64,000 nucleotides of DNA from the NCBI RefSeq assembly GCF_055900595.2, contig NZ_CM148325.1; one strand, 5' to 3'. Made by a program: the position numbers and the translations under genes. Below the pieces are notes generated by a model, which searched no databases, was not told where the DNA came from, and was given only the letters and a program-made list of their open reading frames with translations. Within the stretch, counting starts at the first letter, position 1; the number at the start of each line of letters is the position of its first letter. This document shows, piece after piece, positions 1,739 to 51,828 of this stretch.

Positions 1739-3121
1739 TTATCCCACCAGCATCCAGGTCGCCGGAACTGAGGCAATTAACAGCATGCCAATCAGCACCA
1801 TTTCCTGACGATTCAGTACATTATCATGTGTATGCGTTTTACGCGCGTACAGGAAGACCAGTAGCCCTGGCGCATACAGAACGACGGACAACAGCAGATG
1901 CATTGGACCAGAGGCGTACAATAACCATAAGCCATAAATGCAGGCACCGACACCTACCGCTTTATGCAGTGGACGGGTTGCAATTTTCAGCAAGAACGCG
2001 CCGACCAGGAAATAAGGTACCAGAATCATTTCTGAGGCGATGGTCAGCAACGTGTTGTAATCGGAACCGGTCAGCCAGATCAGTACCAGACAAATTTGCA
2101 CGCAGATATTGGTCAGCCACAGTGAGGCGGATGGCGCGGCTTGTGCGTTCTGGCGCGCAAAAATGCGCGGGAATGCTTTATGGGTGGCTGCCAGGAACGG
2201 AACTTCTGCCGCCATGATGGTCCAGCTTAAGTACGCACCGCAAACGGAAACGATCAAACCGGCAGCGATGATGATTTCGCCCCACGGTCCCATCATTTCC
2301 ACCATCAGACCGGCCATTGACGGGTTACGAATTTCAGCCAGTTCAGGACGTGCTACCACGCCCAGCGAAAGCAGCGTTACCAGCAAGTAAACGCCCAGAG
2401 CGGAGAGAACCGCCAGCAGTGTTGCTTTACCTACATCACGTTTATTACGCGCACGCGCCGAAACGACCACAGCACCTTCCACACCAATGAAAACCCACAG
2501 GGTGATCAGCATGGTGTTTTTCACCTGTTCCCATACCGGTACGCCAAGTGCAAGGCCAGTAAAGTCGAGCTTGAAGGTGTCCAGTTTGAACATCATCATC
2601 GCCAGCACAATAAACAGGCCCAGCGGCAACAATTTTGCCAGTGTCGCCACCAGGTTAATGCTGGCAGCGGTTTGTACCCCGCGCAGGATCAAAAAGTGAA
2701 CAATCCACAATAAAGCCGAGGCACCGACGATCGATTGCCAGGTATTGCCATCGCCAAACAGACGCAATTCCGGCGTGTCCGTAAAAAAGCTTAACGCGGA
2801 AAAAACGATCACCAGATAGGAGACGTTGGCGATAACCGCGCACAGCCAGTACCCCCATGCGGAACAAAAGCCGATTAACTCACCAAACCCTTCGCGGGCA
2901 TAGGTAAAGATGCCGCCGTCAAGCTCGGGGCGAATGCGTGTGAGGATCAGCATGGCAAAGGCCAGCAATAAAATGCCAGCACCAGTAATGCTCCAGCCGA
3001 TGAGCAGTGCTGCCGGGCTGGCAACTGCCGCCATATTTTGCGGCAGACTGAAAACACCCGCGCCCAGCATTGAGCTTAATACCAGCGCGGTGAGTGCGCT
3101 CAGTCCCAGTTTCTTTTCCAT
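1739..3121 (-). CDS. ydgI: APC-family amino acid transporter (arginine:ornithine antiporter-like) YdgI
   Basis: 460-aa polytopic membrane ORF MEKKLGLSALTALVLSSMLGAGVFSLPQNMA... with the GAGVFSLP transporter signature. Confidence 0.9.
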   Translation of the reverse strand: MEKKLGLSALTALVLSSMLGAGVFSLPQNMAAVASPAALLIGWSITGAGILLLAFAMLILTRIRPELDGGIFTYAREGFGELIGFCSAWGYWLCAVIANVSYLVIVFSALSFFTDTPELRLFGDGNTWQSIVGASALLWIVHFLILRGVQTAASINLVATLAKLLPLGLFIVLAMMMFKLDTFKLDFTGLALGVPVWEQVKNTMLITLWVFIGVEGAVVVSARARNKRDVGKATLLAVLSALGVYLLVTLLSLGVVARPELAEIRNPSMAGLMVEMMGPWGEIIIAAGLIVSVCGAYLSWTIMAAEVPFLAATHKAFPRIFARQNAQAAPSASLWLTNICVQICLVLIWLTGSDYNTLLTIASEMILVPYFLVGAFLLKIATRPLHKAVGVGACIYGLWLLYASGPMHLLLSVVLYAPGLLVFLYARKTHTHDNVLNRQEMVLIGMLLIASVPATWMLVG

Positions 3122-3306
3122 CGATATCCAGTGGTTAAAACGTGATTAGAAGAATAAATATTAGGGCAAAACGCATAAAAATGGAGTTTGCCACTGAAGC
3201 GCGGGATTTTACGAAGAGATGTGTCTGCATGCAATGGTCGTGGGGAAATTTGTGACTAAAAATGCGAAAGGCGGCATTAAGCCGCCTTATAGTGGTAACT
3301 GAATAG

Positions 3307-3385
3307 TTATTTATACAGATCTGCGCTAACGGTGAGGTTATTACCTCGTTCCTGCCACTGGCGGGTGATGTGGTAATACTTAGCG
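3307..3385 (-). pseudogene. ydgH: Displaced 3' end of ydgH (last ~22 codons plus native TAA stop), separated from the gene body by IS10
   Basis: Reverse complement of 3307-3385 reads in the ydgH frame ...K G A K Y Y H I T R Q W Q E R G N N L T V S A D L Y K stop; the 9-bp duplicated target at 3377-3385 repeats the codons that end the truncated gene at 4715-4723. Confidence 0.75.
3377..3385. repeat. IS10 target-site duplication, left copy (TACTTAGCG)
   Basis: Identical 9-mer directly flanks both IS10 termini (3377-3385 and 4715-4723); near-match to the IS10 hotspot NGCTNAGCN. Confidence 0.9.
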
Positions 3386-4714
3386 CTGAGAGATCCCCTC
3401 ATAATTTCCCCAAAACGTAACCATGTGTGAATAGATTTTGAGTAAGCAGGGTTGCAGCCACGAGTGAGTCTTCCCTTGTTATTGTGTAGCCAGAATGCCG
3501 CAAAACTTCCATGCCTAAGCGAACTGTTGAGAGTACGTTTCGATTTCTGACTGTGTTAGCCTGGAAGTGCTTGTCCCAACCTTGTTTCTGAGCATGAACG
3601 CCCGCAAGCCAACATGTTAGTTGAAGCATCAGGGCGATTAGCAGCATGATATCAAAACGCTCTGAGCTGCTCGTTCGGCTATGGCGTAGGCCTAGTCCGT
3701 AGGCAGGACTTTTCAAGTCTCGGAAGGTTTCTTCAATCTGCATTCGCTTCGAATAGATATTAACAAGTTGTTTGGGTGTTCGAATTTCAACAGGTAAGTT
3801 AGTTGCTAGAATCCATGGCTCCTTTGCCGACGCTGAGTAGATTTTAGGTGACGGGTGGTGACAATGAGTCCGTGTCGAGCGCTGATTTTTTCGGCCTTTA
3901 GAGCGAGATTTATACAATAGAATTTGGCATGAGATTGGATTGCTTTTAGTCAGCCTCTTATAGCCTAAAGTCTTTGAGTGACTAGATGACATATCATGTA
4001 AGTTGCTGATAGGTTTCCAGTTTTCCGCTCCTAGGTCTGCATATTGTACTTTTCCTCTTACTCGACTTAACCAGTACCAACCCAGCTTCTCAACGGATTT
4101 ATACCATGGCACTTTAAAGCCAGCATCACTGACAATGAGCGGTGTGGTGTTACTCGGTAGAATGCTCGCAAGGTCGGCTAGAAATTGGTCATGAGCTTTC
4201 TTTGAACATTGCTCTGAAAGCGGGAACGCTTTCTCATAAAGAGTAACAGAACGACCGTGTAGTGCGACTGAAGCTCGCAATACCATAAGCCGTTTTTGCT
4301 CACGGATATCAGACCAGTCAACAAGTACAATGGGCATCGTATTGCCCGAACAGATAAAGCTAGCATGCCAACGGTATACAGCGAGTCGCTCTTTGTGGAG
4401 GTGACGATTACCTAACAATCGGTCGATTCGTTTGATGTTATGTTTTGTTCTCGCTTTGGTTGGCAGGTTACGGCCAAGTTCGGTAAGAGTGAGAGTTTTA
4501 CAGTCAAGTAAGGCGTGGCAAGCCAACGTTAAGCTGTTGAGTCGTTTTAAGTGTAATTCGGGGCAGAATTGGTAAAGAGAGTCGTGTAAAATATCGAGTT
4601 CGCACATTTTGTTGTCTGATTATTGATTTTTGGCGAAACCATTTGATCATATGACAAGATGTGTATCCACCTTAACTTAATGATTTTTACCAAAATCATT
4701 AGGGGATTCATCAG
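3386..4714 (-). mobile_element. Insertion sequence IS10 (IS4 family), complete 1,329-bp element
   Basis: Termini CTGAGAGATCCCCTCATAATTTCCCC (3386->) and CTGATGAATCCCCTAATGATTTTGG (reverse complement at 4714<-) form the IS10 inverted repeats; internal 402-aa transposase; length 1329 bp; flanked by 9-bp direct repeats. Confidence 0.95.
3399..4607 (-). CDS. IS10 transposase
   Basis: 402-aa ORF MCELDILHDSLYQFCPELHLKRLNSLTLACHALLDCKTLTLTELGRNLPTKARTKHNIKRIDRLLGNRHLHKERLAVYRWH... matches the IS10/Tn10 transposase as I recall it. Confidence 0.95.
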   Translation of the reverse strand: MCELDILHDSLYQFCPELHLKRLNSLTLACHALLDCKTLTLTELGRNLPTKARTKHNIKRIDRLLGNRHLHKERLAVYRWHASFICSGNTMPIVLVDWSDIREQKRLMVLRASVALHGRSVTLYEKAFPLSEQCSKKAHDQFLADLASILPSNTTPLIVSDAGFKVPWYKSVEKLGWYWLSRVRGKVQYADLGAENWKPISNLHDMSSSHSKTLGYKRLTKSNPISCQILLYKSRSKGRKNQRSTRTHCHHPSPKIYSASAKEPWILATNLPVEIRTPKQLVNIYSKRMQIEETFRDLKSPAYGLGLRHSRTSSSERFDIMLLIALMLQLTCWLAGVHAQKQGWDKHFQANTVRNRNVLSTVRLGMEVLRHSGYTITREDSLVAATLLTQNLFTHGYVLGKL

Positions 4715-5589
4715 TACTTAGCGCCTTTCTTCGCGGCACGTTTCGCAACCTGATAGGAGACTTCGGTCATGTTGCCATAGTTGCCAGAGAATTTGATGCT
4801 GTCGAATGGAACCATCATCGCTGCTGTTGCTTTGTTCAGTTCTTCGACTTTAGTACCATCAGGAAGCGTGACAGTGTAACGCCCGCCTTTTGATGACTGG
4901 GTTTCAAAGAAGCGACCAACTTCAGAACTTGGTGATGCGGTTGTCGCAACCCCTGGGATCTCTACTTTCTTCGCTGCTTCGCCACCCGCAGCCAGAGCTG
5001 CACGTCCCGCTTCGGAATCTGCCGGGATCACATCCGGGCTTTGTACGACGCGTTTCTTAGCATCTTTTTTATAGATGAACGCTGTAATGCGCTGGTTACC
5101 GCCCTGGTTAGCATCGATTTGACGAACAATGTAGAAAGCGTAAGCGCCTTTCGCTTTTGCCGCTTTGGTGATGGCGTCATTGACTTCAGGCTGGCTACGA
5201 TAGAAGCCCTGAACGGTAACCGTATCAAACGGTTCAATCAGAACGGCCTGATCTTTTGGCAGTTCGACAACACCGTTGATAACGCGATTACTTGTTTCTT
5301 CGGCTTTTTCAGCATCGGCTTTATAGAGGTCAGCGACCACACGCCAGTTACCGCTGTTACCAAAATCAGAAGTGTCGACAACATAAAAAGAGGCGGCACC
5401 TTCTTTATCAGCGCGACGAGAAACGGCTTTCACCGCTTCGCCAATAGCATTAAAACGACCGGTAACCACTACACGGTCAAAAGGTTTAACCGCTGCCGCT
5501 TGCTCCGGTGTCAGTTCTGTTGCTGCGTTAACGGAAAAGGCCGTAGCAGAAAGCAGTGCCGACGCCAGGAGGGTGTTCTTAAGCTTCAT
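4711..5589 (-). CDS. ydgH: Periplasmic DUF1471-repeat protein YdgH, C-terminally truncated by IS10 (stop codon supplied by the IS10 terminus)
   Basis: 292-aa ORF MKLKNTLLASALLSATAFSVNAATELTPEQ... with signal peptide; ends ...KKGAKY then TGA at 4711-4713, which lies inside the IS10 terminal repeat; native continuation is found at 3307-3385. Confidence 0.85.
   Translation of the reverse strand: MKLKNTLLASALLSATAFSVNAATELTPEQAAAVKPFDRVVVTGRFNAIGEAVKAVSRRADKEGAASFYVVDTSDFGNSGNWRVVADLYKADAEKAEETSNRVINGVVELPKDQAVLIEPFDTVTVQGFYRSQPEVNDAITKAAKAKGAYAFYIVRQIDANQGGNQRITAFIYKKDAKKRVVQSPDVIPADSEAGRAALAAGGEAAKKVEIPGVATTASPSSEVGRFFETQSSKGGRYTVTLPDGTKVEELNKATAAMMVPFDSIKFSGNYGNMTEVSYQVAKRAAKKGAKY
4715..4723. 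repeat. IS10 target-site duplication, right copy (TACTTAGCG)
   Basis: See left copy; identical 9-mer. Confidence 0.9.
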
Positions 5590-6049
5590 AAAAATAATCC
5601 TTCGCCTTGCGCAAACCAGGTACTGGTATTGTTATTAACGAGAAACGTGGCTGATTATTGCATTTAAACGGTGTAACTGTCTGCGTCATTTTTCATATCA
5701 CATTCCTTAAGCCAATTTTAATCGTGCTCAAATGACCGTCTATGCTTAAAAAACAGCCGTATCAGCATCAATACTACTGAAGCAACTGAATTGTATAAGT
5801 TAATTTAATGTTAAGTAGTGATTCGTGCCGGGGCGATGTCTCGTTTTACCCGACCGTCGAAGACAATTATCAGTCTTTATCCAGCGTTCTAAGGTGTTTA
5901 TCCCACTATCACGGCTGAATCGTTAATATTTTGCGAGTTCACGCCGAAATACTGATTTTTGGCGCTAGATCACAGGCATAATTTTCAGTACGTTATAGGG
6001 CGTTTGTTACTAATTTATTTTAACGGAGTAACATTTAGCTCGTACATGA

Positions 6050-7645
<1,596 letters not shown>

Positions 7646-7652
7646 GGGGTAA

Positions 7653-9044
<1,392 letters not shown>

Positions 9045-9047
9045 CCC

Positions 9048-9075
9048 TGACGGCCTCTGCGGAGGCCGTCACTCT
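9048..9075. terminator. Hairpin between convergent pntB and tqsA (bidirectional terminator candidate)
   Basis: GACGGCCTC-tgcg-GAGGCCGTC perfect 9-bp stem followed by T-rich tract. Confidence 0.5.
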
Positions 9076-10103
9076 TTATTGAGATCGCTTAACAGAACGG
9101 CGATGCTTTGACCTCCCGCTGTTTGTTCAAGCGCAATTTTGACAATAATTGTTAACGGCACGGAAAGCAGCATACCCACCGGTCCTAACAACCATCCCCA
9201 AAAAATCAACGACAAAAATACCACCAATGTGGAAAGCCCCAGCCCACGTCCCATGATGCGCGGCTCCAGAATATTGCCGAAGACCAGATTAATTAGCAGA
9301 TATCCCGCCAGCACCAGCAACGCTTCGTAGAAGCCATTAAACACCAGTACCTGAGCGATAGGGGGGATTGCCGCGAGAACTGAACCAATATTCGGGATGT
9401 AATTAAGCGCAAAGGCCAGCAATCCCCAGACAAAAGCGAAGCGAACATCGAGTGCGGCGAGCATCGCCCAGGCGACCAGGCCGGTGATGATGCTGATGGC
9501 TGTTTTCAGCACCAGATAATGAGACACACTGTCAATCGCGCGCTGAATCGCCGCCATCCCTTCAACCGGACGCGCCATCATTTGCTGAAATTTTCCGGGC
9601 AATTGTGGCACTTCGAGCAGCATAAACAGCACCGTCAGCAGCAATAAAAATATTGATGACATGGCATTAGATAACTGCGTCAATAAGTTGGTGAGCAACG
9701 TCATCGCCGCGTTCGGGTCAATGTAATGAGCCAGTTGGTCAACTGAGACATCAATCCCTACGCGTTGCAACAACGGTTCAATAGCTTGAAGTGGTGTCAT
9801 AATGGAGTTGCGATATTGCGGCAACGTCCTCGTTAATTCATTGAGCGCGGACCCCAGATAAGCTAGCAGCAACACCATTGCCATCACGATGATGGTCATC
9901 AAAATCGACACCGCCAGTACACGCGGCACTCGCCAGCGGACCATGTGTTGCACCAGCGGGTTAAGAATAACAGCAATAAATAATGCGAGAATAAACGGCA
10001 CGATGATCTCGGCGGCAAAACGGATACCGCAGAGAATAATGACCAGCATTCCCAACATAATGACGATTTTTAGGCCATTGAGCGTGATGATCGGCTTTGC
10101 CAT
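9069..10103 (-). CDS. tqsA: AI-2 exporter TqsA (AI-2E family transporter)
   Basis: 344-aa membrane [40 protein letters not shown]... Confidence 0.9.
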
Positions 10104-10514
10104 GCTTGTCCCCGTTTTTTCTTCCTTTGCTAATAATAATGTCTTTTTCGCTCCGTCATCATAACGAAAATCAAACCGCTCAGGTAAAGAAGTGAAAATA
10201 TTTTGAGTTAATTCTTAAGCTATGATACAAATCAGGCGTGTTCAACTACCGAGGACAATTATCATCCGCGATGATGAGAAGCAACACTGCGGATAATTGT
10301 AATATTATGGACAATTTGTTCAGGACGTTATTTTCTACATTTACCCATCTTCGTACCTCATCCACTATCTTGCTCGTAGGTGAGCAGCACTGGCGCAACG
10401 CGCTTTAGTCCTTTCTTCTGCCTAACCTTGCGCTATGCGCGGGGCTTGATCACTTTGCTCTGGTTTCGCTGAATTGAGCGAAAGATAAAATAATTCTCTT
10501 GCAGGAGAAGGACG

Positions 10515-10880
10515 ATGTATATTTATTGGATTTTATTAGGTCTGGCTATTGCTACGGAAATTACCGGCACGCTGTCAATGAAATGGGCGAGCGTCAGTGA
10601 GGGTAATGGCGGTTTTATTTTAATGCTGGTGATGATTTCTCTGTCGTATATATTTCTCTCCTTCGCCGTTAAAAAAATCGCCTTAGGCGTAGCTTATGCG
10701 CTGTGGGAAGGTATCGGTATTTTATTGATTACCTTGTTTAGCGTTTTGTTATTCGATGAAAGTTTATCGCTGATGAAAATTGCCGGGTTAACGACCCTGG
10801 TGGCTGGGATTGTATTAATCAAATCAGGTACCCGTAAAGCGTGTAAACCTGAGCCGGAGGTGAACCATGGCGCAGTTTGA
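10515..10880 (+). CDS. mdtJ: Spermidine export protein MdtJ (SMR family)
   Basis: 121-aa [33 protein letters not shown]...; overlaps mdtI start. Confidence 0.9.
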
Positions 10881-11196
10881 ATGGGTACACGCCGTCTGGC
10901 TGGCATTGGCAATCGTGCTGGAAATCGTTGCTAATGTCTTTTTGAAATTTTCTGACGGCTTTCGTCGCAAAATCTATGGTTTGCTCTCCCTGGCGGCGGT
11001 GCTGGCTGCCTTTAGTGCGCTTTCTCAAGCCGTTAAAGGGATTGACTTGTCTGTAGCCTATGCATTGTGGGGCGGATTTGGTATTGCCGCCACGTTAGTC
11101 GCAGGTTGGGTTTTGTTTGGTCAACGTTTAAATCGCAAAGGCTGGATTGGCCTGGTCTTGCTGTTGGCTGGAATGATTATGGTGAAGTTTGCCTGA
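10867..11196 (+). CDS. mdtI: Spermidine export protein MdtI (SMR family)
   Basis: 109-aa [34 protein letters not shown]... Confidence 0.9.
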
Positions 11197-11234
11197 TGAA
11201 CACGCTGCCCGTGCTGTCGGGCAGCGTTTGAATG

Positions 11235-12056
11235 CTATTTTTGCAAAAGTTGGTCTAGCTTGTCGCGAAAACCAGTGACAGAAATGGCCCGGTTATCGGC
11301 ACGCCAGCGATCTTTCGCGGCAGGAGCCGAACTTTGCACGCCAATTAACTGACAGCCGTTATCGGTATGCAACATCAGAGGCGAACCGCTATCACCCGGC
11401 AAAGTATCGCACTGATGCGACATCACCGACGTTTGCGCCCAGCCAGTTACTTCGCAATTTTGATGACTGTATAGCGTATCGAGGTGATCTTCAGGATATC
11501 CCGCTTGAGTCACTTTTCGACCTGCCGCTTTTAATGCGGCGGTAAGTGCGGCTTTATCTCCCGCAAATAACGGCAACGGTGTAATGCCAGAAGGGGGATT
11601 ACGTAGCACAATCAAACCGAAGTCCCACGGCGCAGCTGCGGGAGGAACAATCCAACCATCCCCATCTGCTTTTAACCGCTTTCCCAGTGTCGGGTCAACG
11701 CGGCCTTCTATGTCGTGGATCTCATAGCGCCAAAGACCTTTATTTGACACAAAACGCAGCGCCACCGCTTTATCGGCTTTACCCTTTGGCGGCATCAATA
11801 AACAGTGTCCTGCCGTTAATGCCAGATTGGGTGCAATCAGCGTCGCCGTACATAAATTGCCGCTGGCCGTTTCCAGTTGCCCAACCGCATCCCACGGTGA
11901 TTGGGTCGTGTCATTCACTGGCACACGATCATCATGACCAAAAAACAGGGTGCTGACCTCATCGTTTGCCGATTTGGCAACGTCTGGTTTATCTGCAAAC
12001 ACAAAAGCAGACGTCAAACTAATTGCACCCAACACTACAGCAATGGTTGTACGCAT
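11235..12056 (-). CDS. ydgD: Secreted trypsin-like serine protease YdgD
   Basis: 273-aa ORF with signal peptide [21 protein letters not shown], catalytic TAGHC and GDSGSP motifs. Confidence 0.85.
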
Positions 12057-17491: not shown

Positions 17492-18700
17492 CGTCCGCGA
17501 AATTACCGACGCAATTACGCAGGCAATCAATAAACCGGGGAGTAGCTGATACTCCCCGGTCATTTCACATATCATCAACGTCGACATAATCGGCGCGTGC
17601 GTGGTCGCCGCCAACAGTGTCGCCATCCCGGTTAATCCGAGTAAGAGTGTCATTTCTTCGCCGTCAGGAAACCATAACCCCAGGCTACGTCCATACAACA
17701 TGCCAATGGCAAGACCGATAAAGAGTGTTGGTGTAAACACACCACCAGGCGCGCCGGAACCGCTACTCGCCAGAACGGCAAACAGTTTGCAAAGGAAGAT
17801 CCCGGCAATGATCATAAACAGTGGCGGGGCGGTTAAAAAGGATTGTACGGTGCTATAGCCGTTGCCCCACACGGCAGGGGTGAACAGGGAAAGCAGACCC
17901 ACGATCAACCCGCCGAGTGCCAGTTGCCAGGGGGGCGCAAGTTTGAGAATAACAAATCCTCGATGACTGGCGTTCATTAACGTTAACAACACTGGTCCGC
18001 ATAGACCTGCCAGCACACCAGTACTGATAATCAGCGCATAGTCACGAGCTTGAACCGTCACTGAGAGTTGCACGCTGTAGAGTAATGCATCGCTATGATT
18101 AATCAGATTGCTAATCAGCAACGCCACGACAGCAGAAATAACCACCGGTCCGAGAGAGGCCAACATCATAGTGCCAAACAGCACTTCGGCTATAAATAAA
18201 CTGCCAGCAAGCGGGGCGCGGTAAGCCGCAGCCATTCCCGCCGCAGCTCCACAGGCAATCCATAATTTCCACTCCTGGCGTGGCGTAAAACGCTGAGCAA
18301 AACAGGAGGCGGCAAGGGCAGCTAAAAGAATCATCGCACCTTCGCGACCAATTGCGCTGCCGCTAGTTACTACCAGCAGAGAGGCAAGCGATTTAACCAG
18401 GCTTGCTGCGTAATCGAATTTACCATCGGTTTGCAACGCTTCCATGTAATCGGTCGGCGCATGAGGGCGTTGCTGGGTAAATTTCTGCCAGCCCATCAAC
18501 AACAAACCCGCCGCCAGTCCGCCGAGCGCCGGAGTTAGCAGCCGTCGCCACGGAGAAAGATTCGTCGCTGCATTGACCAGACTGCCGGAGTCATTATTGA
18601 GGAACAGCCATTCCAGTAGCAGCATCGCGTGACGAAACGCGGCAACGGCAAAGGCCGCAAGAATACCGACTATTGTTGCGATAAGCAGACGGCGAAACAT
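17444..18700 (-). CDS. clcB: Voltage-gated ClC-type chloride channel ClcB
   Basis: Membrane [34 protein letters not shown]... with GREGA motif; start taken at the internal ATG matching the ClcB N-terminus; 3' end overlaps ynfK convergently. Confidence 0.85.
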
Positions 18701-23518: not shown

Positions 23519-25945
23519 TTATATTTTGTCGATCTCGACCAGATTAGTGTGCTGCGGGTTTCCCTTCGCCAGTGGTGAAGGGCGCAGAGTGGTTAGCGTA
23601 TTCACACAGCCGCCGTGGTCGATTTTATCGCCAGACATATCGGCTTCGTGCCAGGCTCCCTGGCCCATAGCGCTAACTCCAGGGAGAATGCGTGGTGTCA
23701 CTTTGGCTGGTAGCCGAACTTCGCCACGATGGTTAAACACTCGCACCATATCGCCGTTGGCAATCCCACGTTTCTGTGCATCTATAGGGTTGATCCACAC
23801 TTCCTGACGGCAGGCTGCCTTCAGGACATCAATGTTGCCGTAGGTCGAGTGAGTACGGGATTTGTAATGGAAACCAAACAGTTGTAGCGGGAAGGTACTA
23901 CGTTCAGGGGCGTCCCAGCCTTCAAAGGTTGAGGCATAAACCGGCAGTGGGCTTATCACTTCATCTTTTTCCAGTTCCCAGGTACGGGCAATTTCCGCCA
24001 GCTTGCTGGAATAAATTTCAATCTTACCGGAAGGCGTTTTAAGTGGATTTGCCTCGGGGTCGTCACGAAATGCTTTGTAGGCGACAAAATGACCATTGGG
24101 ATCCTTACGCTTATAGATACCCATTTTTTTCAGTTCGTCGTAAGACGGTAACGCCGGATCTTTGGCAAGCATTTTGGCGTACAGATGTTGTAACCATTGT
24201 TCCTGAGTGCGGCCTTCAGTGAATTTTTGATAGACGTCAGGGCCAAGACGTTTCGCGACTTCACTTAGGATCCAGTAAATCGGTTTGCGTTCGAATTTTT
24301 CGCTGGTGACTGGCTGGAGGAAAATGAGATATCCCATGTTACCGGCGTAATCGTTAGGAATAATATCTTCCTGCTCAACGGTCATCAGGTCTGGCAGCAG
24401 AATGTCGGCATATTTCGCCGATGAGGTCATAAAGTTTTCGATGACCACAATCATTTCGCATTTCGATTCGTCCTGCAGAATTTCATGCGTTTTGTTAATG
24501 TCAGAATGCTGATTAACCAGGGTATTTCCCGCGTAGTTCCAGATGAACTTAATGGGCACATCCAGTTTATCTTTGCCGCGGACGCCGTCGCGGATTGCCG
24601 TCATTTGCGGGCCATGATCGATAGCATCCGTCCAGCTGAAGCAGGAGATTGATGTTTTGACCGGATTATCCAGCACCGGCAGGCGTTCTATGGTAATGGT
24701 ATAGGTGGATTCACGCGCGCCACTATTTCCGCCGCTGATGCCGACATTGCCCGTCAGAATAGGCAACATCGCAATAGCGCGTGCAGTCAGCTCGCCGTTT
24801 GCCTGGCGTTGCGGTCCCCAGCCCTGGCAGATATAAGCGGGTTTTGCTGTGCCAATTTCACGCGCCAGTTTGATGATACGGTCCACCGGGATACCGGTAA
24901 TTTGCGAAGCCCACTGCGGCGTTTTCGCTGTTTTGTCGTCTCCTTCACCAAGAATATAGGCTTTATAGTGACCATTTTTTGGTGCATCTGCGGGTAAGGT
25001 TTTTTCGTCATAGCCGACGCAGTATTTATCGAGAAAAGGTTGATCAACGAGATTTTCGTTAATCAATACCCAGGCAATGCCCGCTACCAGCGCGGCATCA
25101 GTGCCCGGGCGAATAGGAATCCACTCGTCTTCACGACCGGCAGCCGTATCGGTATATCGCGGATCGATAACAATCATTTTTGCGTTCGATTTCTCGCGCG
25201 CTTTTTCAAGAAGATAAGTGATGCCACCACCGCTCATGCGGGTTTCTGCCGGGTTGTTACCAAACATCACGACCAGCTTGCTGTTTTCAATATCCGTGGT
25301 GCTGTTGCCATCATTACTGCCGTAGGTGTAGGGCATGGCACAGGAAATTTGCGCAGTGCTGTAGGAGCCATACTGGTTGAGTGAACCGCCGTAGCAGTTC
25401 ATCAGGCGTTTGACCGCCGAGGCCGATGGCGAAGAGCGGGTCATATTGCCGCCAACGATCCCCGAAGAGTACTGAATATATACAGCCTCATTGCCATATT
25501 GTTCGACGGTTTTCTTCAGGCTACTGGCGATAGTATCCAGGGCTTCATCCCAGCTAATCCGTTCGAATTTGCCTTCGCCACGTTTGCCCACGCGTTTCAT
25601 TGGGTAATTCAAGCGATCGGGATGATTAATACGTCGACGAATGGACCGACCGCGCAAACAGGCGCGTACTTGATGATTGCCATACTCGTCGTTGCCGGTG
25701 TTGTCAGTTTCCACCCAGGTGACTTCATTATCTTTAACATGTAGACGAAGTGCACAGCGGCTACCACAGTTGACGGAACAGGCACCCCAGACCACTTTTT
25801 CGCTGGCCTGTTGTACCGCTGCCGCTGCACTGCGCAGGGTGAACGGTAAAGAAAAACCGCCTGCAGCCAGCGCCAGAGAACCTATCGCGGTAGATTTAAC
25901 GAGTGTTCTGCGGCTGATGCCCACCATTTGTTCATTTTTGGACAT
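23519..25945 (-). CDS. ynfE: Molybdopterin oxidoreductase catalytic subunit YnfE (DmsA paralog)
   Basis: 808-aa ORF MSKNEQMVGISRRTLVKSTAIGSLALAAGG... Tat signal; tandem paralog of ynfF. Confidence 0.9.
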   Translation of the reverse strand: MSKNEQMVGISRRTLVKSTAIGSLALAAGGFSLPFTLRSAAAAVQQASEKVVWGACSVNCGSRCALRLHVKDNEVTWVETDNTGNDEYGNHQVRACLRGRSIRRRINHPDRLNYPMKRVGKRGEGKFERISWDEALDTIASSLKKTVEQYGNEAVYIQYSSGIVGGNMTRSSPSASAVKRLMNCYGGSLNQYGSYSTAQISCAMPYTYGSNDGNSTTDIENSKLVVMFGNNPAETRMSGGGITYLLEKAREKSNAKMIVIDPRYTDTAAGREDEWIPIRPGTDAALVAGIAWVLINENLVDQPFLDKYCVGYDEKTLPADAPKNGHYKAYILGEGDDKTAKTPQWASQITGIPVDRIIKLAREIGTAKPAYICQGWGPQRQANGELTARAIAMLPILTGNVGISGGNSGARESTYTITIERLPVLDNPVKTSISCFSWTDAIDHGPQMTAIRDGVRGKDKLDVPIKFIWNYAGNTLVNQHSDINKTHEILQDESKCEMIVVIENFMTSSAKYADILLPDLMTVEQEDIIPNDYAGNMGYLIFLQPVTSEKFERKPIYWILSEVAKRLGPDVYQKFTEGRTQEQWLQHLYAKMLAKDPALPSYDELKKMGIYKRKDPNGHFVAYKAFRDDPEANPLKTPSGKIEIYSSKLAEIARTWELEKDEVISPLPVYASTFEGWDAPERSTFPLQLFGFHYKSRTHSTYGNIDVLKAACRQEVWINPIDAQKRGIANGDMVRVFNHRGEVRLPAKVTPRILPGVSAMGQGAWHEADMSGDKIDHGGCVNTLTTLRPSPLAKGNPQHTNLVEIDKI

Positions 25946-36060: not shown

Positions 36061-36113
36061 CGGCGGCAGAGCAGTCACGGAGTAAAACTGATACCGCTAA
36101 ACGTCACCAGAAA
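36061..36113 (-). ncRNA. dicF: DicF small regulatory RNA (ftsZ-targeting sRNA)
   Basis: Reverse complement TTTCTGGTGACGTTTAGCGGTATCAGTTTTACTCCGTGACTGCTCTGCCGCCG followed by T-run; near-identical to the 53-nt DicF sequence as I recall it; located just upstream of dicB. Confidence 0.75.
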
Positions 36114-41669: not shown

Positions 41670-41823
41670 TTTTATATTGGCGAGGTGACGTGAGTTAAGT
41701 AGAATTGCTGCGGGTGCTTGAGGCTATCTGCCTCAGGCATGAACACCAACGGCAGATAGAGAAAAGCCCCAGTTAACATTACGCGTCCTGCAAGACGCTT
41801 AACATTAATCTGAGGCCAATTTC

Positions 41824-42036
41824 ATGCTAGACACATGTAGGTTAGCCTCTTACGTGCCGGAAGGCAAGGAGAAGCAGGCTATGAAGCAGCAAAAGGCGAT
41901 GTTAATCGCCCTGATCGTCATCTGTTTAACCGTCATAGTGACGGCACTGGTAACGAGGAAAGACCTCTGCGAGGTACGAATCCGAACCGGCCAGACGGAG
42001 GTCGCTGTCTTCACAGCTTACGAACCTGAGGAGTAA
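41824..42036 (+). CDS. mokD: Mok-like leader frame (N-terminally extended hok reading frame)
   Basis: ATG at 41824, MLDTCRLASYVPEGKEKQA-MKQQK...; same frame as hok, as in annotated mok/hok pairs. Confidence 0.5.
   Translation: MLDTCRLASYVPEGKEKQAMKQQKAMLIALIVICLTVIVTALVTRKDLCEVRIRTGQTEVAVFTAYEPEE
41881..42036 (+). CDS. hokD: Hok-family type I toxin (HokD/RelF-like)
   Basis: 51-aa ORF MKQQKAMLIALIVICLTVIVTALVTRKDLCEVRIRTGQTEVAVFTAYEPEE. Confidence 0.9.
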   Translation: MKQQKAMLIALIVICLTVIVTALVTRKDLCEVRIRTGQTEVAVFTAYEPEE

Positions 42037-51053: not shown

Positions 51054-51416
51054 ATTAATATTAAATCGGATTATTTTTAGCGCTGAATGTGAAATTTAAA
51101 TAAAAAGGACTCTTCCATGAGTCAAAATCCTTGAAATCTTAAGGGTAAGATAAAAGGTCATTAGACAGAATGACACGTTTTATTAATAAATAAAGCTATT
51201 GTTTCATTCGTGTGTTTTTCTTTACAAAAGTAATCCTTGCTATGGTTGGTTAATCATGCGTTAATGGTGTTCTGGTTTGTTACAAAATTATCTGAAGCAG
51301 TCATTGTTATAATTTTATTATTTGTACCTCTTGAGATTTCCTTGTTGGTTTTTCTCTCTGATATTTTTTTTCGGACCATTCTGCCCAAGGGCTAACTTCT
51401 TCAAAAGGTAATAATG

Positions 51417-51629
51417 ATGTCTAACAAAATGACTGGTTTAGTGAAATGGTTTAACCCTGAAAAAGGTTTTGGTTTCATCACGCCGAAAGATGGTAGCAAA
51501 GATGTGTTTGTCCATTTCTCAGCTATTCAGAGCAACGATTTCAAAACGTTAACTGAGAATCAGGAAGTCGAATTTGGTATTGAGAACGGACCTAAAGGCC
51601 CCGCGGCTGTTCATGTTGTGGCACTTTGA
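51417..51629 (+). CDS. cspI: Cold-shock protein (CspA family; CspI-like)
   Basis: 70-aa [73 protein letters not shown]; preceded by ~360-bp untranslated AT-rich leader. Confidence 0.85.
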
Positions 51630-51828
51630 GGTAGATAATATTACAAACCATATTCACTTTAGATGCCCGTGTTGCCATGGTTCTCAGTATAGAACATCAT
51701 CTTTTGATGTTTCTGACAGGAATCCTTTCGGGGCAAAATGTATCTTTTGTAAATCAATGATGATTACATTTGATAATATTTCACAATACTTAAATGTTAG
51801 CCGTCTATCGTTAGATTTAAGAAAGTGA
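51613..51828 (+). CDS. Candidate small zinc-ribbon-like protein (CPCC...CxxC)
   Basis: [51 protein letters not shown]...; overlaps csp 3' end; weak RBS; followed by terminator. Confidence 0.25.

Follow-up and report, generated by a model that had tools for sequence, protein, structure and literature searches.

We analysed a 64,000-nucleotide stretch of an Escherichia coli chromosome (contig NZ_CM148325.1 of assembly GCF_055900595.2; hereafter the window, numbered from its first letter) in which an insertion sequence (IS) of the IS10 type interrupts the 3′ end of ydgH, a conserved gene of the E. coli envelope that lies between ydgI and pntA. The complete element, a member of the IS4 family, occupies 1,329 bp at 3386–4714 on the minus strand, with its outside end at 4714 and its inside end at 3386. 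On the inside-end (3386) side it begins CTGAGAGATCCCC (more fully, CTGAGAGATCCCCTCATAATTTCCCC), and at its right end it reads ...GGGGATTCATCAG (more fully, ...CCAAAATCATTAGGGGATTCATCAG), the reverse complement of the outside end CTGATGAATCCCC. The terminal inverted repeats, read directly from the letters, lie at 4692–4714 on the minus strand (IS bp 1–23) and at 3386–3408 on the plus strand. They are imperfect, the inside and outside ends agreeing at 17 of the first 23 bases, and the termini, compared over bp 1–23 and the last 20 bases, are identical to those of the IS10 arms on plasmid R100. The tetranucleotide GATC occurs in the element at IS bp 67 and 1320 only (window 4645–4648 and, within the inside-end repeat, 3392–3395); the former falls in the −10 region of pIN and the latter in the inside end, and both are sites of Dam regulation in IS10. 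An IHF-like site, AATCATTAAGTTA, lies at IS bp 30–42 (4673–4685), a position that we take from established knowledge of the element.

The sole long open reading frame of the element is the transposase gene, at 3399–4607 on the minus strand, with 402 codons and a stop. Its product scores 402 bits against the NCBIfam profile NF033591 (IS4-family transposase; cut-off 152) and retains all of the catalytic residues D97, D161 and E292 (DDE), together with Y285, R288 and K299 of the YREK signature. On the opposite strand, the gene for the antisense RNA RNA-OUT spans 4600–4669 and matches Rfam RF00240 over its full length (positions 1–70 of 70) with 97.3 bits against a gathering threshold of 41. In length, ends, transposase, flanking 9-bp duplication, RNA-OUT and Dam sites, 3386–4714 is an IS10. 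An earlier note, made from the letters of this stretch alone, had described a complete 1,329-bp IS10 with a 402-residue transposase and both terminal repeats, and every coordinate that it gave for them agrees with ours.

Identical copies of the 9-mer TACTTAGCG abut the two ends of the element, one at 3377–3385 beside the inside end and the other at 4715–4723 beside the outside end. Neither strand of the window has a further copy, and the chance of a 9-mer match at exactly that position is about 4e-6. A repeat finder returned 10 bp (TACTTAGCGC), the first base of the IS and the base after the right copy both being C; we took the duplication as 9 bp because the known IS10 ends fix the boundary. 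In E. coli E200086 (NZ_CM128605.1), which is free of the IS at this locus, TACTTAGCG occurs once at the site, so the perfect target duplication of the earlier note is borne out by two copies here and one in the empty site. With the IS and one of the two repeats taken out, the window sequence becomes identical to that of E200086 over 600 bp (300 bp ending at 3385 joined to 300 bp from 4724), and the flanks differ from E200086 at 6 positions in 14.6 kb (99.96% identity). The target agrees with five of the six specified positions of the IS10 hotspot NGCTNAGCN, a score reached by 0.41% of window positions, and was rightly called a near-match; it also fully fits the relaxed IS10 consensus NRCNNNGYN quoted in PMC4574204.

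The insertion divides ydgH into two parts. The truncated gene, at 4711–5589 on the minus strand, has 292 codons followed by TGA; the IS supplies both this TGA and the third position of codon 292 (bases 4711–4714). Its product matches the YdgH profile NF040471 with 503 bits over profile positions 1–297 of 319. The orphaned 3′ end, at 3307–3385 on the same strand, consists of the duplicated 9-mer plus a single base, then the final 22 codons, and the native stop TAA at 3307–3309. Alignment to an IS-free ydgH, the check that the earlier note had proposed, was made with E200086, where ydgH is an uninterrupted gene of 945 bp and 314 codons adjoining ydgI. The first 292 residues of the window protein are identical to those of E200086 YdgH and end in KGAKY; the 22 residues that are lost, YHITRQWQERGNNLTVSADLYK, are still encoded at 3307–3376, beside the left repeat copy, and match the tail of the intact protein. 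The earlier account of a gene split 22 codons before its stop, ending KGAKY with a TGA supplied by the IS and leaving an orphaned 3′ end at 3307–3385, thus holds throughout.

Could the insertion be an artefact, the IS having been misplaced during assembly or having hopped in from a cloning host? IS elements are often misassembled, and IS10 hops from cloning hosts into cloned DNA (PMC4574204). Both junctions are nevertheless base-perfect, with the 9-bp duplication expected of transposition. Moreover, an exact look-up of the 292-residue product in Logan recovered a public short-read assembly, SRR27886137, with the same ydgH/IS junction; this independently assembled contig ends 28 bp into the IS, includes the right junction and agrees with the window at 3,904 of 3,904 bases. 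The IS10 copies of cloning strains (XL1-Blue, DH10B and JM109; PMC11148124) are Right-type and that of ET12567 is another mosaic, and the window copy matches neither. Given the base-perfect reconstruction of the empty site and the junction in SRR27886137, we regard the insertion as real and an artefact as scarcely credible.

Taken together, the locus is almost certainly the product of normal cut-and-paste movement, in a natural lineage of E. coli, of an IS10-type element that entered ydgH at a near-consensus target in its 3′ end. As a kind of event it is an ordinary mobile-element insertion, of a sort already known. In this course of events, transposase would have cut at TACTTAGCG with a spacing of 9 bp, and gap repair would have duplicated the 9-mer. 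Transcription and translation of ydgH then run into the outside end of the IS, where C-TGA stops the protein at residue 292 of 314. The element has the full set of parts for IS10 self-regulation: pIN with RNA-IN, pOUT with RNA-OUT, the pair of Dam sites and a hairpin that can fold back over the transposase start.

To place the copy among known IS10 elements, we used the two Tn10 arms on R100 (NC_002134.1) as references and counted bp from the outside end. The window copy has the length of IS10-Right (1,329 bp) and shares with it a 402-residue DDE transposase, RNA-OUT, a 9-bp duplication and the target preference. It is identical to IS10-Right over bp 1–82, which hold the outside end, the IHF-like site, pIN and its Dam site, and over bp 108–409, and the pOUT region is identical too. 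It differs from IS10-Right at 11 nucleotides, bp 83, 107, 410, 425, 903, 1249, 1268, 1271, 1272, 1281 and 1300, and in four residues of the protein (Right to window: V266I, L381S, A389T and A398V). With IS10-Left, in contrast, the transposase is identical, as are all nucleotides at bp 48–1329; the four differences lie at bp 24, 25, 27 and 47, where the window has the Right-type G, G, A and G and IS10-Left has T, A, C and A. Unlike IS10-Left, which stands in the composite transposon of R100, the window copy is solitary. The copy is not a canonical IS10-Right: its outer tip (bp 24–47) is Right-type and its body (bp 83–1300) Left-type. The label IS10 given in the earlier note is therefore correct for the family and does not extend to IS10-Right, from which this copy departs at 11 positions and four amino acids while carrying a Left-type protein.

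Two of the differences from IS10-Right, bp 83 and 107, fall inside the region in which RNA-IN and RNA-OUT pair. The former is the third base of RNA-IN and lies in the RNA-OUT loop; the latter is the base that precedes the AUG, and its change converts a C–G pair of the RNA-OUT stem to U–G.

Both pure Right and pure Left haplotypes occur in many genera of the species representatives in GTDB, as judged from an outside-end scan that yielded only 20 stretches, most of them cut at contig ends. Other mosaics, with different breakpoints, are found in ET12567, in one Xenorhabdus contig and in one Aggregatibacter contig. On this sample, too small to root a haplotype tree, the window haplotype could equally be a recombinant mosaic or an ancestral or intermediate form. 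As a separate observation, the mosaic with a Left outer and a Right inner part (TACACACGA followed by TAAGTC) is identical in E. coli ET12567 and in the 2.2-kb Xenorhabdus szentirmaii contig NZ_NIBV01000010.1; the X. szentirmaii copy could be contamination from laboratory E. coli or a genuine transfer.

Copies of exactly the window haplotype reside at other loci. In enteroaggregative E. coli 55989 (NC_011748.1), a copy between dkgB and yafC is 100% identical over 1,329 bp; it has its own 9-bp duplication, GGCTTAATC, is intergenic and truncates no gene, and its protein carries the NCBI label 'IS4-like element ISVsa5 family transposase' (WP_001352368.1). In AF56, a copy within cdgI is likewise 100% identical over 1,329 bp and has its own 9-bp duplication, CACTTTGTT. 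Since each of these identical copies has a duplication of its own, the haplotype has been mobile in recent times, on its own or with help in trans. Its presence, unchanged, at three loci in three strains would thus give indirect support to its ability to transpose.

Whether the copy moves by itself bears on a further account, in which its Left-type transposase is too weak and the Right-type enzyme of another IS10 or of a Tn10 moved it in trans. The window protein is the same as that of R100 IS10-Left, which PMC11148124 describes, second-hand, as inactive or defective, and PMC5006887 names IS10-Right as the functional arm. The terminal 23 bp of both ends are as in IS10-Right, so that they should serve as substrates in trans. 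On the other hand, no catalytic residue is altered, and none of the four substitutions is close to one. Beyond the identical copies at three loci in three strains, the Left type occurs in many species, so this protein type spreads in nature. We consider a non-autonomous copy a possibility of some substance, though less likely than not.

Most familiar from the arms of Tn10, IS10 also sits as stray copies in many K-12 cloning strains (PMC4574204, PMC11148124), which raises the question of whether this one was left as a canonical IS10-Right by Tn10 in a laboratory-manipulated, K-12-type strain. The mixed Right and Left character could have arisen by recombination between two Tn10 arms in an ancestor; the haplotype pattern fits an intermediate or ancestral form equally well, with no recombination needed, and the copy is in any case 11 positions and four amino acids away from R100 IS10-Right. 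BLAST of the R100 Tn10 found no match to the Tn10 interior (tet, jem) in the 64-kb window and a single IS copy only. The window holds one outside end and one inside end, and a composite Tn10, with two inverted IS10 copies, tetR/tetA(B)/tetC/tetD and jem, is absent from it. The flanks are of the kind found in natural isolates from humans and animals, with 99.96% identity to human stool isolates: the flank at 4715–12000 is 100% identical to several natural isolates, among them E200086 (human stool, Mali), whereas over ydgH the bulk of E. coli genomes, the K-12 strain EMG2 among them, reach only about 95% identity. Over its second half, the window is identical to the prophage region of clinical isolates. 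IS10-type DNA is also common, occurring in 1,967 of 5,426 complete E. coli genomes (36%), with a near-full-length copy in 1,173, and for that reason an IS10 copy says little about the history of a strain. A Tn10 remnant in a laboratory strain is accordingly very improbable, and an origin in a laboratory strain was rejected because the flanks match wild isolates. The view of the earlier note that the insertion marks a Tn10/IS10 history for this genome is, as regards Tn10, not supported by these comparisons.

By its matches, this is a wild-isolate chromosome, and a mosaic one. From position 1 to about 23.7 kb, the window is 99.8–100% identical to E200086-type genomes and 93–99% identical to JNE25-001; from about 30.7 kb, across rspA/rspB and the adjacent prophage, it is 99.6–100% identical to genomes of the JNE25-001/Ecol_316 type and 83–97% identical to E200086. 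The transition zone of this recombination mosaic lies at about 23.7–30.7 kb. Two further differences from E200086, the closest relative, were seen. In that genome, clcB is truncated by an insertion of an IS200/IS605-family tnpA (locus L006, 2180–2883), while the window has no insertion at 17528–17534 and an uninterrupted clcB region. E200086 lacks window positions 23712–24990 (about 1.28 kb, in the region of the paralogues ynfE and ynfF), probably through a deletion between the paralogues, and the only annotation of its ynfE is a 1,143-bp 'molybdopterin-dependent oxidoreductase'. In the prophage beside rspB, Rfam matches comprise the small RNA DicF at 36061–36112 on the minus strand (64.8 bits), the sok antitoxin of a hok/sok module at 41712–41886 on the plus strand (115.8 bits) and a cspA-type thermoregulator 5′ untranslated region at 51259–51675 on the plus strand (112.8 bits); they fit a Qin/lambdoid-type prophage. 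A search for tRNA genes found none in the whole window.

The exact insertion is absent from all 5,426 complete RefSeq E. coli genomes and was seen in the window and in one public sequencing run, SRR27886137. Four full-coverage matches in the RefSeq search carry the IS elsewhere, between ydgH and pntA. These four genome records represent the strains DETEC-S560, PS1Phumofeces1 and E166, with the IS10 in the same orientation relative to ydgH; among them, haplotype typing covered DETEC-S560. In that genome (NZ_CP116094.1; locus L001, 2895–4223), a pure Left-type copy lies 229 bp upstream of an intact ydgH, flanked by the duplication TGTTAAGTA, and its pOUT faces pntA some 300 bp away: a different site in the same neighbourhood.

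Disruption of ydgH by large indels is rare: 5,421 of the 5,426 complete genomes hold the gene unbroken across 80% or more of its length, in a search that is blind to small frameshifts and nonsense mutations. Apart from the insertion, the ydgH allele of the window is uncommon: only 17 of 5,423 records are at least 99% identical to it and 2,159 are only 90–95% identical, a nucleotide diversity that is high for a core gene.

The position of the element raises the possibility of effects on neighbouring genes. RNA-OUT overlaps the transposase start codon (4605–4607) and reads toward the outside end at 4714, so that pOUT points along the plus strand, antisense through ydgH, on to pntA and away from ydgI. 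The first gene in that direction, pntA, lies at 6113–7645 on the plus strand (taken from the E200086 annotation with an offset of 714), about 1.5 kb from the start of RNA-OUT. The usual endpoint of RNA-OUT lies within the element, at IS bp 47 (about window position 4668; PMC5006887). The earlier note had placed the IS about 265 bp upstream of the ydgI start, with an outward promoter and antisense system that could act on its neighbours. The distance was well judged: from the ATG of ydgI, at 3121, to the inside end at 3386 we computed 264 bp. The antisense system is present as well, but its direction is into ydgH and toward pntA, not toward ydgI.

It is the inside end that ydgI faces. This intact gene (amino acid permease, 460 residues; 1739–3121 on the minus strand, annotated as colinear in E200086) is separated from the IS by the native intrinsic terminator of ydgH, a hairpin with an 8-pair stem (six G–C pairs) and a T-run tail, TCGCATTTTT, at 3268–3288 on the minus strand. 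The terminator is intact and now lies between the inside end and ydgI, and from its position ydgI should be shielded by it. PMC4574204 reports, second-hand, outward promoter activity at both IS10 ends with activation of adjacent genes, and an effect of the IS on neighbour expression is possible.

Because bp 1–82 and 108–409 equal IS10-Right and RNA-OUT matches its Rfam model, we take pIN and pOUT as present. The transposase gene and ydgH are both on the minus strand, and ydgH transcription therefore enters the IS through the outside end. Against such entry, IS10 is protected by a fold-back hairpin that masks the AUG of the transposase gene in transcripts reading through from outside. The minimum-free-energy fold of the ydgH read-through RNA pairs the AUG and the bases upstream of it with IS bp 52–68 (z = −2.0), which weakly suggests that the same protection would operate here.

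The 22 missing residues fall in a defined part of YdgH. Pfam places three DUF1471 domains (PF07338) in the intact protein, at residues 35–90, 119–174 and 259–314. Against a full-length YdgH of about 314 residues with three complete PF07338 domains, the window product falls short, its third domain lacking the last 22 residues. In the DUF1471 fold, four strands form a sheet in the order 2-4-3-1, and strand 2 is followed by a long helix that precedes strand 3 (PMC4092069); PDB entry 4EVU covers residues 244–314 of Salmonella YdgH, whose sequence is nearly identical. We infer from these that the truncation would come right after the helix and remove strands beta-3 and beta-4, the centre of the third-domain sheet. 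Constructs without DUF1471-C fail to complement a ydgH deletion (PMC11705850). As the loss of 22 residues hits the third DUF1471 domain, which YdgH function requires, the allele is most probably a loss-of-function or null allele. Engineered ydgH mutants in Serratia marcescens and E. coli O157:H7 likewise lose the third domain; here the lesion is a natural IS insertion, and 22 of some 56–70 domain residues are lost. Deletion of ydgH in Serratia and in E. coli O157:H7 lowers susceptibility to cephalosporins and raises it to detergents, the agents in E. coli O157:H7 including ceftriaxone and benzethonium chloride (bioRxiv 10.1101/2021.04.16.440252). If these published deletion mutants are a guide, the window allele would make cells slightly less susceptible to cephalosporins and more susceptible to cationic detergent.

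Such a phenotype would offer one route by which the insertion could have been positively selected, through cephalosporin tolerance on loss of YdgH; the other would be IS read-out that alters pntAB or ydgI. Lower cephalosporin susceptibility on ydgH deletion, the need for domain C, the outward promoter activity reported in PMC4574204 and the IS10 of three other strains between ydgH and pntA, with pOUT facing pntA, all fit it. The allele is nevertheless confined to the window and one sequencing run, with none in 5,426 complete genomes, and ydgH is almost universally intact, which points to purifying selection. The normal end of RNA-OUT inside the element, the 1.5 kb to pntA and the terminator before ydgI speak against read-out, and with a near-consensus target, site preference alone explains the location. 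We hold positive selection to be unlikely. Slightly less likely still is a variant of it, an adaptive ydgH::IS10 in a clinical lineage, by loss of YdgH or by antisense read-out from pOUT toward pntAB, or an element that forms a separate antisense specificity group. Were this so, read-out toward pntAB would have a counterpart in the IS10 elements that three other strains gained independently a short way upstream of pntA, and the changes at bp 83 and 107 in the RNA-IN/RNA-OUT duplex might mark an antisense group partly insulated from IS10-Right.

Several points weigh against an ordinary insertion by a self-regulating element that inactivates ydgH. The element may have been mobilised by a transposase acting in trans, its Left-type protein being reported as defective in PMC11148124. 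The 292-residue YdgH might retain partial function, and the published constructs dropped the whole of domain C, compared with 22 residues here. The fold-back pairing of the AUG does not appear in the centroid structure. A basic scan for sigma-70 consensus promoters detected none within the IS and gave fewer matches than in shuffled sequences; the scan missed pIN and pOUT, and we did not use it as evidence either way. With these taken into account, we retain ordinary cut-and-paste insertion as the explanation, an event that we infer to be recent and roughly neutral.

For this genome, the appropriate designation of the locus is ydgH::IS10 (Left-type transposase, Right-type outer tip), with ydgH a probable null and annotated as an IS-interrupted pseudogene. 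For the element itself, the fitting annotation is an IS10-family member with a protein of the Left-type class, and not IS10-Right or a Tn10 remnant. Beyond annotation, the importance of the insertion is small. Its junction sequence is a strain-specific marker, so far of the window and SRR27886137 only, and the allele, as a natural C-terminal truncation of ydgH, could serve to test the role of the third DUF1471 domain in beta-lactam and detergent susceptibility.

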